A stretch of 31,363 nucleotides of DNA, from positions 1 through 31,363 of IMG/VR virus record IMGVR_UViG_3300016667_000055; one strand, written 5' to 3'. A model generated the notes under the pieces. It saw nothing but the letters and a program-made list of their open reading frames with translations, had not been told where the DNA came from and searched no databases. The stretch comes from a virus. Shown here piece after piece: positions 1,398 through 31,363 of this stretch. Each line of letters starts with the position of its first letter. Within the stretch, counting starts at the first letter, position 1. The position numbers and the translations under genes were made by a program.

Positions 1398-1691
1398 ATG
1401 GACGAACTAAATTTAATCTCAGCGAGTGTTAAGCTGAACAACGTTTTTCTAAAGTTGAAACTATCTTTAGATGAAATCAAAGAAAAACACGGACAAAGAA
1501 CTGACTTAATAGATTCAATGGAAAGAACTTTAGTTGATATAATGGAAGTTAAAGCAACTTATTCAACACTAGAAAAAGAGTTTCGTTCTGCGGTTTCAAG
1601 TCAATATAGATTAGAACATCAAAACATGGATTTAAAATTTAAAATCAAAGACTTAGAAAGTCAACTAAAATATAAAGATGTCACGCTGTAA
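1398..1691 (+). CDS. Hypothetical coiled-coil protein
   Basis: ORF track; heptad-like charged sequence. Confidence 0.5.
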   Translation: MDELNLISASVKLNNVFLKLKLSLDEIKEKHGQRTDLIDSMERTLVDIMEVKATYSTLEKEFRSAVSSQYRLEHQNMDLKFKIKDLESQLKYKDVTL

Positions 1692-1702
1692 AAACTAATT
1701 TG

Positions 1703-1710
1703 TATATTTG
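1703..1710 (+). promoter_or_regulatory. Bacteroidota-type -7 box TATATTTG
   Basis: Matches the TAnnTTTG consensus. It lies in the intergenic region upstream of HNH gene 1. Confidence 0.5.
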
Positions 1711-1711
1711 T

Positions 1712-1798
1712 ATTGTAGAATTGCGGCTACAATTAAAAACTTATTTAAGACCTTAGTGTGAGTAGAGTCCGCAATCTCGAAAGCACTAAGGCTTTTTT
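1712..1798 (+). promoter_or_regulatory. Structured leader: hairpin 1 plus terminator hairpin with complementary loops
   Basis: Hairpin 1 is 1712-1718/1727-1733 with loop AATTGCGG. Hairpin 2 is 1751-1758/1784-1791, and its loop contains CCGCAAT (1769-1775), which is complementary to the loop of hairpin 1. Confidence 0.55.
1751..1798 (+). terminator. Intrinsic terminator-like hairpin plus T6 tract
   Basis: CCTTAGTG...CACTAAGG stem (8 bp) followed by TTTTTT at 1793-1798. Confidence 0.55.
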
Positions 1799-1803
1799 AT
1801 TTT

Positions 1804-2277
1804 ATGACAACTGAAATTTGGAAAGATGTAATTGGATATGAAGGACATTATCAAGTTAGTGATTACGGTAATGTAAAATCATTAAAAAATAAAAATGAAA
1901 AAATATTAAAACCAATAAAAGATGGATTTGGATATTCAATGTATTTTTTATCAAAAAATGGAATAGTAAAAAATTTTAGAGGTCATGTATTGGTTGCTCA
2001 ATCTTTTTTAAATCATAAACCATTAGGATTAAAATTTGTAATTGACCATATAGATGAGAATCCAGCAAATAATAATTTAAAAAATTTGCAAATAATATCA
2101 CACAGAGAAAATGTATCTAAAGGATATAAAAATAAATCATCAAAATATAGAGGTGTTTGTTGGCATAAAGAAAGAAAAATGTGGATGGCAACGGCAATAA
2201 ATAGAAAATATATTGGATATTTTAATACTGAATTAGAAGCTAAAAATGCAATAACAAATTATGAAGAAAAAATGTAA
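1804..2277 (+). CDS. HNH homing endonuclease (NUMOD4 / HNH_3 / AP2-like C-terminus)
   Basis: N-terminus EIWKDVIGYEGHYQVSDYGNVKS (NUMOD4-like). HNH core IDHIDENPANNNLKNLQIISHRENV. C-terminal YRGVCWHKERKMWMA...YIGYF is AP2-like. Confidence 0.85.
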   Translation: MTTEIWKDVIGYEGHYQVSDYGNVKSLKNKNEKILKPIKDGFGYSMYFLSKNGIVKNFRGHVLVAQSFLNHKPLGLKFVIDHIDENPANNNLKNLQIISHRENVSKGYKNKSSKYRGVCWHKERKMWMATAINRKYIGYFNTELEAKNAITNYEEKM

Positions 2278-2800: not shown

Positions 2801-3041
2801 AGAAACAGAAAAGAAACTACTAGCATTGTGCGGAGTGTTACCTGTACTCGCGGATTTTATCGAAGATTTAAACATGGAACACGTATTTACTAAGAATATC
2901 AAACGAAAAGCTAATTTATTACTAGAAGAAATCAGAAAGACGGACGAAGGTATTTTAAAACACACAGATATACAAAGCCAAACACAACAAATAAACATTC
3001 AGATAGCATTTAGGCAGTGGGTAAAAGAAAATTTTAATTAA
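2787..3041 (+). CDS. Hypothetical protein
   Basis: ORF track; its start overlaps the end of ninG. Confidence 0.5.
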   Translation: MKPTKETEKKLLALCGVLPVLADFIEDLNMEHVFTKNIKRKANLLLEEIRKTDEGILKHTDIQSQTQQINIQIAFRQWVKENFN

Positions 3042-3059: not shown

Positions 3060-3103
3060 TTGTTATTCAAAAAAGAATAGTTATATTTGTCAAACAATTA
3101 AAC
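3060..3103 (+). promoter_or_regulatory. Early promoter with spacer inverted repeat
   Basis: TTGTTATTCAAAAAAGAATA (3060-3079, containing TATTC-N6-GAATA), -7 box TATATTTG (3082-3089), then AAACAATTAAAC (3092-3103). It is nearly identical to 29801-29845. Confidence 0.6.
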
Positions 3104-5883: not shown

Positions 5884-5915
5884 AGAGGGAACGTAAAAAA
5901 TTCCCTCTTTTTTTT
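5884..5915 (+). terminator. Intrinsic terminator
   Basis: AGAGGGA (5884-5890) pairs with TCCCTCT (5902-5908), followed by a T8 run. Confidence 0.7.
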
Positions 5916-5944
5916 GTTATATATTATTCTTTTTAGTATATTTG
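5914..5944 (+). promoter_or_regulatory. Promoter (TTG -33-like element plus TATATTTG -7 box at 5937-5944)
   Basis: TTGTTAT...TATTC...TATATTTGT...AAATTAAAC. Same family as the promoters at 3060 and 29801. Confidence 0.55.
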
Positions 5945-5966: not shown

Positions 5967-6305
5967 ATGAAAGATTTATTTTACAGCTGCCCTGAATGCG
6001 ATGGGTGGGGATTCGTAACTATTGATTTGAACGATACGATTATTCCGTACGAACAAAACCCTATTGACTATGAATGCATGGCATGTAGTGGCAAAGGAAA
6101 GGTACTACATGAAGACGAATACCAAATGAAACTAGATGGTGTTACAGAAATGATTGAGGGAATGAAAACACGGATTGAAGGACTTTCACGAATAGTAATG
6201 AAGAGTGAAAACCCTGATTTATACATTGAGCGATTAAAAACTTTATCCTGTGGTTTATACCGATTAGAACAATATAAACGAAAATTGCTTAAATTAGCAT
6301 GGTGA
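5967..6305 (+). CDS. Zinc-finger protein (DnaJ-type CxxCxGxG motifs)
   Basis: CPECDGWG and CMACSGKG motifs. Confidence 0.5.
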   Translation: MKDLFYSCPECDGWGFVTIDLNDTIIPYEQNPIDYECMACSGKGKVLHEDEYQMKLDGVTEMIEGMKTRIEGLSRIVMKSENPDLYIERLKTLSCGLYRLEQYKRKLLKLAW

Positions 6306-6381: not shown

Positions 6382-6933
6382 ATGGGTTTTAGAGATATAT
6401 CTATGAACTGGATTGAAAAGGTATCTAAGCACCACAAAGAATATATAAAGACGATACACAAATTCGGTGAGTACTTCTACGCTGAGGATTTAGTTCAAGA
6501 AATGTACCTAAGATTAATTACTAAGAATAAAGAAGCGCAGGTTATAGTAAACAATAAAGTAAACAAATACTATATTTATTTAACCTTAAGGTCTTTATTT
6601 GTAGACTTTTACAGACAAAAGAAAAAGATTATAAAGGTAGGATTAGAAAATGTATTAACATTGCAGCAAATAGATGAGCTACAAGAACACGAAGCCTTTT
6701 ATAATTTAACACAAAAAGTAAATGAAGAAATTAATAACTGGCACTTGTACGACAAGTTATTATTTGAATTATACCGTGATAGTGGTAAGTCAATGCGAGA
6801 TATTGAAAGCGATACGGGTATAAGTTTAAGGTCAATATTTTGTACTATAAAGCATTGCAAATTAAAGCTAAAGGAAAACGTATATGAACATTATGAGGAT
6901 TACGTTAACCAAGATTACGAATTAATAAAATGA
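6382..6933 (+). CDS. Sigma-70 family (ECF-like) RNA polymerase sigma factor
   Basis: Region 2-like AEDLVQEMYLRL and C-terminal region 4-like HTH KSMRDIESDTGISLRSIFCTIKHCKLKLKE. The start could instead be the ATG at 6405. Confidence 0.5.
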   Translation: MGFRDISMNWIEKVSKHHKEYIKTIHKFGEYFYAEDLVQEMYLRLITKNKEAQVIVNNKVNKYYIYLTLRSLFVDFYRQKKKIIKVGLENVLTLQQIDELQEHEAFYNLTQKVNEEINNWHLYDKLLFELYRDSGKSMRDIESDTGISLRSIFCTIKHCKLKLKENVYEHYEDYVNQDYELIK

Positions 6934-8256: not shown

Positions 8257-8264
8257 TATATTTG
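8257..8264 (+). promoter_or_regulatory. -7 box TATATTTG (candidate late-operon promoter)
   Basis: TAnnTTTG match with no obvious TTG -33 element. It lies upstream of the terS/structural gene block. Confidence 0.5.
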
Positions 8265-8266
8265 TG

Positions 8267-8354
8267 TACCTAAGTCAGAATAGGTAAGCGTTAATAAAAA
8301 GGTTTTTTCATAGATTATAAATCCCGCTCTTTCTGACATTAGGCGGGGTTTTTT
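8267..8354 (+). promoter_or_regulatory. Structured leader: hairpin 1 plus terminator hairpin with complementary loops
   Basis: Hairpin 1 is TACCTA/TAGGTA (8267-8272/8281-8286) with loop AGTCAGAA. Hairpin 2 is CCCGC/GCGGG (8323-8327/8343-8347), and its loop contains TTCTGAC (8331-8337). Confidence 0.55.
8323..8354 (+). terminator. Intrinsic terminator-like hairpin plus T6 tract
   Basis: GC stem followed by TTTTTT at 8349-8354. Confidence 0.55.
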
Positions 8355-8676
8355 ATTTTTCCCTAACTTACATAGAAGTTGTATAAGGTTGAACTTCACA
8401 AAAACAACCGCTCGAAATAAATGCTTGTTATAAAATCCCGCAATGTTTTTGCTTAACAACGGGTACTGCATACCGAAAGGTTATAAAAACAAGTGAACCA
8501 AAATGCCAAGTGTGAAAACACGAATAAATAAGAAGTGGTCGCAGAGGGAAGTGTTATTATCGGGCTAACCTTATATTAGGTTAAAATACTGCAAGTTGGT
8601 ATATGCAGTATAAAAGCGAAGCTATAACCAAGAATAAAAAAAAAGGTTTAAATTTACCAAAAACACGAATTAAATC

Positions 8677-9105: not shown

Positions 9106-9157
9106 AATAAACGCTTTAAAAAAACGAATCAAAATAATACAACAAGGGTGTTGTTAA
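9080..9157 (+). pseudogene. Truncated 5' remnant of terL (copy 1; 25 codons then stop)
   Basis: Encodes MIITTAIRKINALKKRIKIIQQGCC-stop. The first 23 residues are nearly identical to the peptide encoded from 9726, and the copy is truncated where the P-loop should start. Confidence 0.7.
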
Positions 9158-9184
9158 TATAAAAAACTTTCGTATATTTGTGTT

Positions 9185-9757
9185 ATGGAAATATGGCAAC
9201 AAATAAAAGGATTTGAAAACTTATATAAGATTTCTACCTACGGAAGAATTAAAAGTTTGGGAAATGGTAAAAGCACTAATTCTAAAACAAAATTTGAAAG
9301 GATTTTGAAAAGCAATTATTCTTCAACTGGATATGAAAAGATAAAACTTTTCAAAGACGGCAAAAGATATTATTTTTCAGTTCATAGATTAGTAGCTCAA
9401 ACTTTTTTATCAAACGATAAAAACAAAAAAGAAGTTAATCATAAAGACGGAAATAAAGCAAATAATAATGTGTCTAATTTGGAATGGGTAACTTCAAGTG
9501 AAAATCAATTACACGCTTTTAAAAACGGATTGCAAAAGAGCAAAATGGGTAAAGACCATATTCAGTCTAAAAGTGTAAGGCAATTAGATTTAAATGGAAA
9601 TGTAATTCGTACATTTGAAAGCATTAAACAAGTTCAAAGAGAATTAGGATTTAATACATTTGGAATAATTAAGTGTTGTAAAAAAGTAAAAAAATACAAT
9701 ACTGCGTATAAATTTAAATGGGAATATGATAATAACAAGTGCTATACGGAAGATTAA
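9185..9757 (+). CDS. HNH homing endonuclease (NUMOD4 / HNH_3 / C-terminal DNA-binding module, I-HmuI-like)
   Basis: EIWQQIKGFENLYKISTYGRIKS; HRLVAQTFL...VNHKDGNKANNNVSNLEWVTSSENQLHA. It is inserted within terL sequence. Confidence 0.85.
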   Translation: MEIWQQIKGFENLYKISTYGRIKSLGNGKSTNSKTKFERILKSNYSSTGYEKIKLFKDGKRYYFSVHRLVAQTFLSNDKNKKEVNHKDGNKANNNVSNLEWVTSSENQLHAFKNGLQKSKMGKDHIQSKSVRQLDLNGNVIRTFESIKQVQRELGFNTFGIIKCCKKVKKYNTAYKFKWEYDNNKCYTED

Positions 9758-29618: not shown

Positions 29619-29669
29619 TTGTATATTTGAAAAGATTTTTTCATAATTAGTTTAATTGACCGAGAGAAA

Positions 29670-29693
29670 CCCTTACTTATGTAGGGGTTTTTT
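29670..29693 (+). terminator. Intrinsic terminator
   Basis: CCCTTAC/GTAGGGG stem with loop TTAT and a T6 run. Confidence 0.65.
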
Positions 29694-29745
29694 GTTATAT
29701 TTGGGCATTATTAATAACGATTAATAGTCTTAATGTAACATTAAA

Positions 29746-29769
29746 CCCTAGTATTTGCTGGGGTTTTTT
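29746..29769 (+). terminator. Intrinsic terminator
   Basis: CCCTAG/CTGGGG stem with loop TATTTG and a T6 run. Confidence 0.65.
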
Positions 29770-29800
29770 GTTTTCTAAAAAAAAATATTTAAAAAAATAG

Positions 29801-29845
29801 TTGTTATTCAAAAAAGAATATATATATTTGTTGAAACAATTAAAC
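29801..29845 (+). promoter_or_regulatory. Early promoter with spacer inverted repeat (twin of 3060-3103)
   Basis: TTGTTATTCAAAAAAGAATA (29801-29820), -7 box TATATTTG (29823-29830), then AAACAATTAAAC (29834-29845). Confidence 0.6.
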
Positions 29846-30889: not shown

Positions 30890-30897
30890 TATATTTG
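30890..30897 (+). promoter_or_regulatory. -7 box TATATTTG
   Basis: TAnnTTTG match upstream of the replication gene leader. Confidence 0.5.
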
Positions 30898-30901
30898 TCT
30901 A

Positions 30902-30991
30902 TCTGAAATTACAACCACATGAATCAGAAGACTTTTTTATTAACCCTCGTATTCAAAATGCCTCGTGGTTGTGGCTATTGGTACGGGGGTT
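30902..30991 (+). promoter_or_regulatory. Structured leader: two hairpins with complementary loops (pseudoknot)
   Basis: Hairpin 1 is 30902-30906/30924-30928, and its loop contains ACAACCAC (30911-30918). Hairpin 2 is 30942-30951/30982-30991 (10 bp, one G-U pair), and its loop contains GTGGTTGT (30965-30972). Confidence 0.5.
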
Positions 30992-31009
30992 ATTCATTAA
31001 ATTACAACC

Positions 31010-31363
31010 ATGACTCAAAAAAAACCTTTCGTAAAAATCAACATCGAAGACCTTGAATATGCCAAGGAATTTTTCGATAATATAGCCGATTATTCTATTT
31101 GGTTATATGCTGTTACTGAATATTATTGCGGTAATGAAGTTCAAATAAAAAAGAAAATCGTAAAAAAATATTTCGATAATTACAAAAAGACGATGAATAT
31201 CGTTCTTGAAGCTAAAGAGTTTGGAAAAAAAGGTGCATTGAAACGCATTGAAAAACAACAAGTTAACATTGATACCCTTGAAGACCCCCTACAATACCCC
31301 CTTAAAGAGACCCTTACAGTAAATAATAAAGTTATAAATAATAAAGATAAAGAAGTAATTAAT
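31010..31363 (+). CDS. Replication-associated protein, N-terminal part (continues at nt 23 after removing the 22-nt overlap; about 211 aa in total)
   Basis: From ATG 31010 there are 118 codons open to the window end with no stop. The last 7 codons equal codons at nt 2-22. Confidence 0.65.
   Translation, partial: MTQKKPFVKINIEDLEYAKEFFDNIADYSIWLYAVTEYYCGNEVQIKKKIVKKYFDNYKKTMNIVLEAKEFGKKGALKRIEKQQVNIDTLEDPLQYPLKETLTVNNKVINNKDKEVIN

Follow-up and report, generated by a model that had tools for sequence, protein, structure and literature searches.

The DNA examined here, referred to throughout as the window, is the 31,363-nucleotide (nt) stretch at positions 1 to 31,363 of IMG/VR virus record IMGVR_UViG_3300016667_000055. 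It represents an ~31.4-kb genome of a Flavobacterium-type phage in which every gene is located on the + strand. No close match to this genome was found among isolated phages, and its large terminase shares 54% identity with the terminases of Flavobacterium psychrophilum phages. The genome probably is complete and circularly permuted because the sequences at the end and start of the window are joined in relatives. The element under study, designated E1, is positioned at 1703-1803 immediately ahead of an HNH homing-endonuclease gene (Table 1). In most relatives a gene for a 97-amino acid (aa) protein overlaps the start of ninG, and relatives that are free of inserts possess GATGTCACGCTGTAAGCATTGTAG, the ninG start, at this junction. 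In the window, a remnant of the ninG 5′-end comes first, E1 and the HNH gene are next, and functional ninG restarts from a new start at 2261, which is overlapped by the 3′ end of the HNH gene (2261-2277). This succession therefore marks E1 and the HNH gene as an inserted cassette, and the remnant at 1679-1699 can be recognized as the scar of its insertion into the 5′ end of ninG. Both in the window and in related loci (L001, L002, L010, L019, L030, L031, L035, and L036), the place where the 97-aa gene meets ninG is a hot spot for insertion. The inserts in the relatives comprise genes for HNH endonucleases, probable methyltransferases (no family library check), or unknown genes, and are tightly packed without any leader.

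The initial annotation described E1 as a -7 box followed by two hairpins with complementary loops, a T6 tract, and the HNH gene. Every position in that description proved accurate, and minimum free energy (MFE) folds returned exactly the proposed hairpins for E1 and for two further elements in the window, E2 and E3. The segment L1 in the loop of hairpin 1 (H1) of E1 is the exact complement of the segment L2 in the apical loop of hairpin 2 (H2). When loops were shuffled, the observed complement was reached with P = 0.0015 for E1, 0.0049 for E2, and 0.0092 for E3 (product 7e-8). Thus, the loop complementarity of the three elements is beyond chance. The energies of the loop-loop (kissing) duplexes ranged from -7.6 to -10.4 kcal/mol. 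The layout of E1 had been proposed to recur at E2 and E3. The architecture and the loop pairing do recur, but E3 has no clean T-run behind H2, which is followed by GGGGGTTATTCATT, and the T6 of E3 instead comes after H1; by the U-tract, E3 (GGGGGUUAUUCAUU) does not qualify as an intrinsic terminator. Similarly, the three copies in the window were viewed as offering covariation-like support for the fold. As they cannot be aligned with each other they do not provide covariation in the strict sense, but true covariation is present in relatives as described below. A 45-aa open reading frame called across E3 (30919-31056), which starts in the H1 loop, probably is spurious because the conservation in this region is of the RNA type.

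Table 1. Features of the E1 locus and of the related elements E2 and E3 (window coordinates).
Feature	Position	Strand	Details
ninG 5′-end remnant	1679-1699	+	ATGTCACGCTGTAAAAACTAA; 21 nt, overlaps stop codon of 97-aa gene
E1 -7 box	1703-1710	+	TATATTTG (TAnnTTTG); no -33 TTG at usual spacing
E1 H1	1712-1733	+	ATTGTAG 1712-1718 / CTACAAT 1727-1733; MFE fold
E1 H1 loop	1719-1726	+	AATTGCGG; contains L1 ATTGCGG 1720-1726
E1 predicted transcription start	1715	+	G1715, predicted from box spacing; fifth nucleotide after box G
E1 A/U-rich linker	1734-1750	+	TAAAAACTTATTTAAGA; 17 nt, unpaired in MFE fold
E1 H2, terminator-type	1751-1791	+	MFE -23.5 kcal/mol, z = -3.2
E1 H2 lower stem	1751-1759 / 1783-1791	+	CCTTAGTG(T) / (G)CACTAAGG
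E1 H2 apical stem	1765-1767 / 1776-1778	+	GAG/CUC; closes 8-nt apical loop
E1 H2 apical loop	1768-1775	+	contains L2 CCGCAAT 1769-1775
E1 U-tract	1793-1798	+	T6, then ATTTT; presumed termination point; kept in all E1-type relatives
HNH homing-endonuclease gene	1804-2277	+	Pfam NUMOD4 + HNH_3; PHROG HNH endonuclease
E2 element	8257-8354	+	box 8257-8264, H1 8267-8286, linker, H2 8320-8350, U-tract 8349-8354
E2 loops	8274-8280 / 8331-8337	+	L1 GTCAGAA / L2 TTCTGAC; sequence, MFE fold
E3 element, divergent X-type	30890-30992	+	box 30890-30897, H1 30898-30931, H2 30941-30992
E3 loops	30911-30918 / 30965-30972	+	L1 ACAACCAC / L2 GTGGTTGT; sequence, MFE fold
Third copy of E3 L1 sequence	31004-31012	+	ACAACCA (31004-31010); abuts ATG 31010 of downstream gene

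Several routes to the detection of comparable structures proved uninformative. A generic scan, in which any pair of hairpins qualified if their loops were complementary for at least 7 nt, produced approximately as many matches on the minus strand as on the plus strand, and was abandoned as the matches were AT-rich chance occurrences and the approach is unspecific in an AT-rich genome. Therefore, the case for the element rests on its anchored architecture and, above all, on its relatives. A looser scan anchored on the -7 box gave much noise unless a T-run and a GC filter were imposed, and a simple terminator scanner missed the terminators of E1, E2, and the X-type elements introduced below because its loop limit is 8 nt. 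Alternative pairings also were considered. Extension of the pairing beyond the loops is possible in the window through CTAC/GTAG in E1 and CCTAA/TTAGG in E2, but these extended pairings were dropped as part of a mechanism as they are not conserved in relatives. A nested, long-range L1:L2 stem that replaces the kiss was rejected as it is less stable than H1 and H2 together, and both hairpin stems covary.

Related sequences were collected as 117 IMG/VR loci by means of the helicase and small-terminase proteins. Searches of these loci by blastn with E1 and E2 revealed no homologue, the sequences being too divergent, and relatives of the E1 and E2 types were found solely by position and architecture. 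Conservation of E3 amounts to 86-89% across four loci, where the H2 stem has undergone one compensatory change. Most relatives possess a related element, termed X-type, at the equivalent position at the start of the replication module. In an alignment of nine distinct X-type sequences, eight loop-loop pairs were 100% paired, six of them with changes on both sides, and the helix contained no one-sided change and no break. This pairing was reached by none of 500 shuffles, and slid controls dropped to 15-40% paired. RNAalifold, in which pseudoknots are not possible, selected the X-type loop-loop helix unprompted as the sole consensus structure. The H1 and H2 stems of the X-type covary too. A search pattern that specified scaffold positions only, leaving both loops free, matched at least 120 IMG/VR contigs with at least 110 distinct elements, and 104 of 110 contained a perfect complement of at least 8 nt. 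Approximately 28 loop-pair versions were present among the matches listed, all with L1 of the form NNNNNNAC and L2 of the form GTNNNNNN. When the same pattern was applied as a negative control to bacterial genome contigs, 120 mostly random matches were recovered among which only five carried the complement. Four of these five are true members on small contigs of metagenome-assembled genomes, one of which was binned as Flavobacterium. The bacterial genome scan gave no evidence of prophage integration, the genuine copies being confined to these small contigs.

Equivalent behavior was evident for the other two types. A pattern in which only the box and the H1 stem of E1 were fixed identified 12 IMG/VR loci, to which one metagenome contig that carries E1 was added; this single further E1 copy, with identical loops, was all that searches with the HNH protein contributed. 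At least five E1-type loop versions exist, including ATTGCGG/CCGCAAT, GTTACGG/CCGTAAC, and GTCGAGG/CCTCGAC, as well as GGTTGCGG/CCGCAACC and GGTTACGG/CCGTAACC. The seven loop-loop positions were paired in all seven distinct E1-type sequences, with double changes at four positions, and the lower stem of H2 was 100% paired with five covarying pairs. The inner 4-5 bp of E1-type H1 are invariant, and the linker segment CTTATTTAAGA is kept. The site orthologous to E2 is flanked on one side by the stop codon of the preceding gene and on the other by 310 nt of conserved non-coding sequence that lead up to terS. Four E2-type loop pairs were observed: GTCAGAA/TTCTGAC in the window, and GTCGCA/TGCGAC, GTTCAGG/CCTGAAC, and GTAGCAG/CTGCTAC. 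A GC-based stem followed by U6-U8 is found in E1, E2, and at least 103 of the 110 listed X-type elements. Loop complementarity thus is preserved in related phages in each of the E1-, E2-, and X/E3-type families, and the kissing-loop topology envisaged in the initial annotation is borne out by covariation. These compensatory changes show that H1, H2, and the predicted loop-loop helix form a real RNA structure. No Rfam family was matched at the gathering score or at E < 5, and a literature search did not uncover a description of a kissing-loop leader element of this kind. The leader apparently is a real, previously undescribed RNA control element.

The box TATATTTG occurs 13 times in the window compared to 3.9 copies expected, and 11 of the 13 copies are on the + strand. 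Boxes of E2 orthologues (TATATTTG, TATTTTTG, and TAGATTTG) vary at the two nn positions only, which is the behavior expected of a real TAnnTTTG sigma-A box. On this comparative basis, TATATTTG is considered a genuine Bacteroidota sigma-A -7 box. Five of the copies (1703, 8257, 29622, 29696, and 30890) have a stop codon directly before them and hairpins with a terminator behind them, and no -33 element accompanies these copies. In F. psychrophilum the sigma-A box lies at positions -12 to -5 relative to the start site (PMC9723704). The same spacing places +1 at G1715 in E1, at ~8268/8269 in E2, and at the first nucleotide of the H1 stem in X-type elements. In all three families the predicted start thus coincides with nucleotide one or two of the conserved portion of H1, and H1 would be the 5′-terminal hairpin of locally initiated RNA. 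It had been suggested that locally initiated and read-through transcripts fold differently as H1 begins so close to the box. This distinction is not supported, as an E1 RNA that starts at G1715 would keep the GUAG/CUAC stem and hence both H1 and loop 1; moreover, the outer E1 stem pairs that would be exclusive to read-through RNA are not conserved, pair 11-30 being broken in three of the seven distinct sequences. No other sigma-A-type -7 box precedes the genes downstream of E1, E2, and E3/X, and no TAnnTTTG box is present on the + strand between the E2 terminator and terS. In the E1- and X-type families the ATG is positioned 3-35 nt past the U-tract without an intervening promoter and, therefore, the downstream genes would depend on read-through.

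The link with homing endonucleases that was noted for E1 holds across its type: each E1-type element found is followed, 3-5 nt past its U-tract, by a homing-endonuclease gene. The proteins encoded behind these elements are of the NUMOD4-HNH type, a second HNH type, or GIY-YIG, and the elements occupy at least three genomic sites. One X-type element likewise precedes an HNH-like start (MEEIWKD). The architecture as such is not specific to endonucleases, as initially implied, as E3 and X-type elements are located at the opening of the replication module and E2 is positioned before the packaging genes, that is, at module boundaries. E2 precedes an ~310-nt conserved non-coding region which is followed by terS.

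This non-coding stretch, which extends from the E2 terminator to the terS ATG (8368-8676), contains long invariant blocks and averages 86% identity in seven relatives, a higher conservation than that of its neighbors. It is confined to the subgroup in which an E2-type element is found as well. RNAalifold produced a multi-helix fold of 66 pairs, six of which had double compensatory changes, and no Rfam match was obtained. The stretch may act as structured leader RNA, as a cos/pac site at the DNA level, or in both ways.

Overall, E1, E2, and E3 may constitute one architectural class of cis-acting, promoter-proximal attenuator leader RNAs in which the kiss tunes a terminator, a reading that is put forward at about even confidence. 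A host sigma-A promoter that consists of the -7 box only would start the RNA at the base of a short, 5′-terminal H1, to be followed by the A/U-rich linker and by a long, terminator-type H2 with its U-tract. A Watson-Crick kissing helix of 6-8 bp joins the H1 loop to the apical loop of H2, as the covariation demonstrates. Most transcripts are expected to end at the U-tract as RNAs of ~85-100 nt, the genes immediately downstream would be expressed through read-through, and the kissing helix would set or switch the efficiency of the terminator. The direction preferred here, with modest confidence, is that a kiss which forms before the 3′ arm of H2 has been made would hinder closure of the lower H2 stem and so favor read-through, in line with the proposal for the guanidine-IV riboswitch. 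The E1-type element would act as the 5′ module of mobile homing-endonuclease cassettes that keeps endonuclease expression low and independent of context, E3 and X-type elements would gate the replication module, and E2 would gate the leader of the packaging and late genes. An attenuator or antitermination role had been proposed initially. It remains the most economical interpretation of a box, ~85 nt, a terminator hairpin with U-tract, and a gene start in succession, with the functional component extrapolated from this layout.

A number of observations weigh against this attenuator model. Both ends of the transcript are predicted, as is the efficiency of termination. The -33 element, taken as TTTG ~19-21 nt upstream of the -7 box, is absent at E1, E2, and E3 and is not conserved in 108 X-type upstream regions; it is present at window promoters 3082, 5937, 9173, and 29823 and at some E2 orthologues. 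The kiss is strong, the loops do not contain ligand-like conserved nucleotides, and no regulating signal is evident. A constitutive kiss would make for an attenuator that is constitutive rather than switchable. In addition, E2-type elements have a linker of 28-36 nt and a short H2 such that the kiss and the full H2 stem should coexist, whereas X-type elements combine a 13-14-nt linker with a long H2. Because of these differences in linker and H2 length, steric exclusion between the kiss and H2 is not general. E3 lacks a clean U-tract after H2. Finally, two tandem units at 29622-29775 are not accompanied by a kiss or by a gene directly behind and look more like stand-alone units. In each, TATATTTG and a short 5′ segment lead into a canonical terminator with a short loop, and the pair sits where the late genes end, immediately ahead of the early promoter at 29823.

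The variety of loop sequences invites an unlikely alternative in which recognition is allele-specific and occurs in trans. A short, terminated leader would accumulate, and its free loops would kiss the complementary loops of nascent leaders of the same version, either those of the phage itself or those of a co-infecting relative, and thereby shift termination. The outcome would be feedback that senses gene dosage, or a specificity code that resembles immunity or incompatibility, with both partners derived from the sense strand. Many interchangeable loop versions do sit on similar scaffolds (~28 X-type among the matches listed, at least five E1-type, and four E2-type). Loop pairs within one genome are mutually orthogonal, both for E1, E2, and E3 in the window and for the two X-type copies of locus L069. 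Moreover, the per-site rate of change at the six variable X-type loop positions is ~1.5-2 times that of the scaffold where scaffolds are 80-90% identical, and one pair of X-type elements with identical scaffolds differs by two compensated loop pairs only. The CI RNA of P4 and IsrK provide precedents (PMC4825925). On the other hand, an intramolecular kiss should win wherever it is sterically allowed, which it clearly is in the E2-type. The scaffold itself is constrained so that faster change in the loops is no proof of positive selection, and at ≥90% scaffold identity the loops nearly always are identical. Strong hypervariability of the loops is not claimed, given that loop columns are 63% identical compared to 71% for the scaffold in the nine aligned X-type sequences and that the rate difference in the large set is 1.5-2-fold. 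If recognition in trans did operate, each gate would sense genome copy number via titration of nascent leaders of the same version, and closely related phages that co-infect or superinfect would cross-regulate solely when versions match. This would amount to a sense-strand, RNA-only incompatibility or immunity system that is carried also by mobile endonuclease cassettes.

The two X-type elements of L069 are ~1.7 kb apart (1207-1310 and 2931-3036), and their loop pairs differ (GTCTTCAC/GTGAAGAC and CGTCTGAC/GTCAGACG, respectively).

It is distinctly unlikely that the short RNAs are themselves the products, that is, that the elements are small RNA genes in which the kiss does no more than hold the two terminal hairpins together in a compact fold that resists nucleases, with the nearby downstream genes being incidental or expressed by leak-through. 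The ATG placed 3-35 nt past the U-tract in E1- and X-type elements, with no promoter between, demands read-through. Furthermore, no target complementarity stands out elsewhere in the genome, where k-mers of the loops occur at chance level. Nevertheless, a promoter, ~85-100 nt, and a terminator are the classic layout of a small RNA gene, the 5′-terminal hairpin and the 3′ terminator hairpin both are stabilizing features, and the box-plus-terminator units at 29622-29775 are not followed by a gene. The conserved non-stem nucleotides of X-type elements, namely ACAnnATA in the H1 loop, a UGAA/GGAU internal loop, and a GUUAUUA linker, suggest a binding partner.

In a very improbable alternative, the element is a translational switch in which an L1 copy at the start codon downstream offers L2 a pairing partner and H1 serves as a decoy that frees the start region. 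A third copy of L1 does abut the ATG behind E3, with which the E3 L2 could pair, and in the unrelated L011/L101 type GGGCAG is present in L1 and again 1-5 nt before the ATG. The occurrence of this copy in two unrelated types suggests that a translational variant exists in E3 and in L011/L101 in which L2 masks the start region unless H1 occupies L2, and the poor U-tract of E3 would fit a role other than termination. However, no L1 copy is present at the ATG for E1, E2, or the other X-type elements checked. Thus, a translational switch cannot explain the element at 1703-1803 or the general architecture. Finally, a DNA-level feature such as a cruciform or a recognition site for an endonuclease or terminase is scarcely credible, as is coincidence: although E1-type elements always adjoin homing-endonuclease genes and E2 adjoins a probable cos/pac region, the elements are strand-specific with a fixed register to the promoter box and U-tract, three helices of which one is pseudoknotted bear the compensatory changes that are the signature of a single-stranded transcript, and chance is excluded by the loop shuffles, the scaffold-only pattern, and the bacterial-contig control.

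Two further sets of sequences in the window merit description. Four promoters of the form TTG-N19/20-TATATTTG with short leaders are positioned at 3060-3089, 5914-5944, 9151-9180, and 29801-29830. The promoters at 3082 and 29823 have a nearly identical block of ~45 nt in common, and that at 9173 drives a second HNH gene (9185-9757) which is inserted between terS and terL. Separately, the motif AAA[CG]ACG[AG]A is strongly polar, with 39 copies on the + strand and two on the - strand of the whole window. Copies are present, for example, at 739, 3910, 7454, 8516, 8661, 18690, 21587, and 25340, and occur in all three frames as well as in intergenic DNA. The sequence AAACACGAA with no more than one mismatch was found 59 times compared to 19.7 expected. 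One copy of the motif is located 8 nt before the terS ATG of the window, and nearly all relatives possess one just upstream of the terS ATG.

Gene regulation in phages of Flavobacteria is almost unknown, and the elements described here would represent a widespread family of cis-regulatory RNAs in these phages that spans >130 IMG/VR contigs and lies outside Rfam. Under the attenuator model, they would furnish a natural example of a terminator that is controlled via a kiss with its own apical loop. As a conserved scaffold carries dozens of re-coded versions of the pairing, the family would be a natural library of orthogonal kissing-loop attenuators, of interest to synthetic biology and to the study of RNA folding. 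The E1 type would illustrate free-standing homing-endonuclease genes of different families that travel with a dedicated promoter-plus-attenuator module, a new solution by which selfish genes may limit their own expression and the cost to the host phage.

Among known systems, the guanidine-IV riboswitch (mepA motif) comes closest. In this riboswitch a kiss links the loop of hairpin one to that of the terminator hairpin and hinders completion of the terminator stem, which leads to read-through (PMC11611296). The two leader hairpins with kissing loops, the second of which with its U-tract is a terminator, are shared with the elements described here. However, the guanidine-IV loops contain conserved nucleotides and their weak kiss is stabilized by ligand, whereas the phage elements form 6-8 canonical pairs of freely varying sequence and possess neither a conserved pocket nor an Rfam match. 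No ligand is implied for the latter because the kiss is strong without conserved loop nucleotides. The genes controlled also differ: exporter and detoxification genes are located behind the riboswitch, in contrast to HNH endonuclease genes, replication genes, and terS in the phage.

Phage RNAs derived from leaders offer a second parallel. The CI RNA of satellite phage P4 pairs with seqA and seqC and decides premature termination, and the short IsrK RNA of Gifsy-1 activates the long, read-through isoform (PMC4825925). As in the elements studied here, complementary segments of one transcription unit pair. The P4 effector, however, is a processed, antisense-like RNA with flanking targets, whereas complementarity alone is seen in the present case, and neither a two-hairpin kissing architecture nor a 5′-terminal hairpin is described for P4. 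In plasmids pT181 and pIP501, an antisense countertranscript produced from the opposite strand kisses the nascent leader and decides whether a terminator forms. In these systems, too, a few loop nucleotides confer the specificity, which can be re-coded; the difference is that both loops of the phage elements are on one sense RNA. The PR′-6S RNA-tR′ region of lambda combines a constitutive promoter with a terminator close behind at the entry to a gene module, and antitermination by lambda Q requires both a site in the DNA and a pause that depends on sigma. The put RNA of HK022 consists of two promoter-proximal stem-loops that act in cis on the polymerase and contains no terminator. Neither the lambda region nor put has loop-loop pairing.

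Two genes are located behind the window promoter at 5937. The product of 5967-6305 is a CXXCXGXG zinc-finger protein with weak Q-like and anti-TRAP matches, the Q-like PHROG match having E = 0.003 and the Pfam matches being sub-threshold; this is the sole hint of a Q-type factor, and no Q binding site was identified. The second gene (6382-6933) specifies a 183-aa protein like extracytoplasmic function-type sigma factors, with full-length but sub-threshold NCBIfam and Pfam matches. Both products are candidate regulators of late transcription or antitermination.

The comparison with T4 is most pertinent to E1. In T4, dedicated promoters together with terminators and RNA structures keep the expression of homing-endonuclease genes low (PMC2988022). 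E1-type elements likewise are dedicated 5′ modules of HNH and GIY-YIG cassettes. The initial annotation had likened the gating of the HNH gene to that in T4, where the start region is sequestered depending on the promoter used. This parallel does not extend to E1, in which H2 ends 13 nt short of the HNH ATG at 1804 and the start region is free. Nor is a kissing-loop terminator design described for T4. Leader attenuators that are controlled by kissing loops are already known, and the phage elements are set apart by an unusual pairing that can be re-coded and by the link with mobile endonuclease cassettes.

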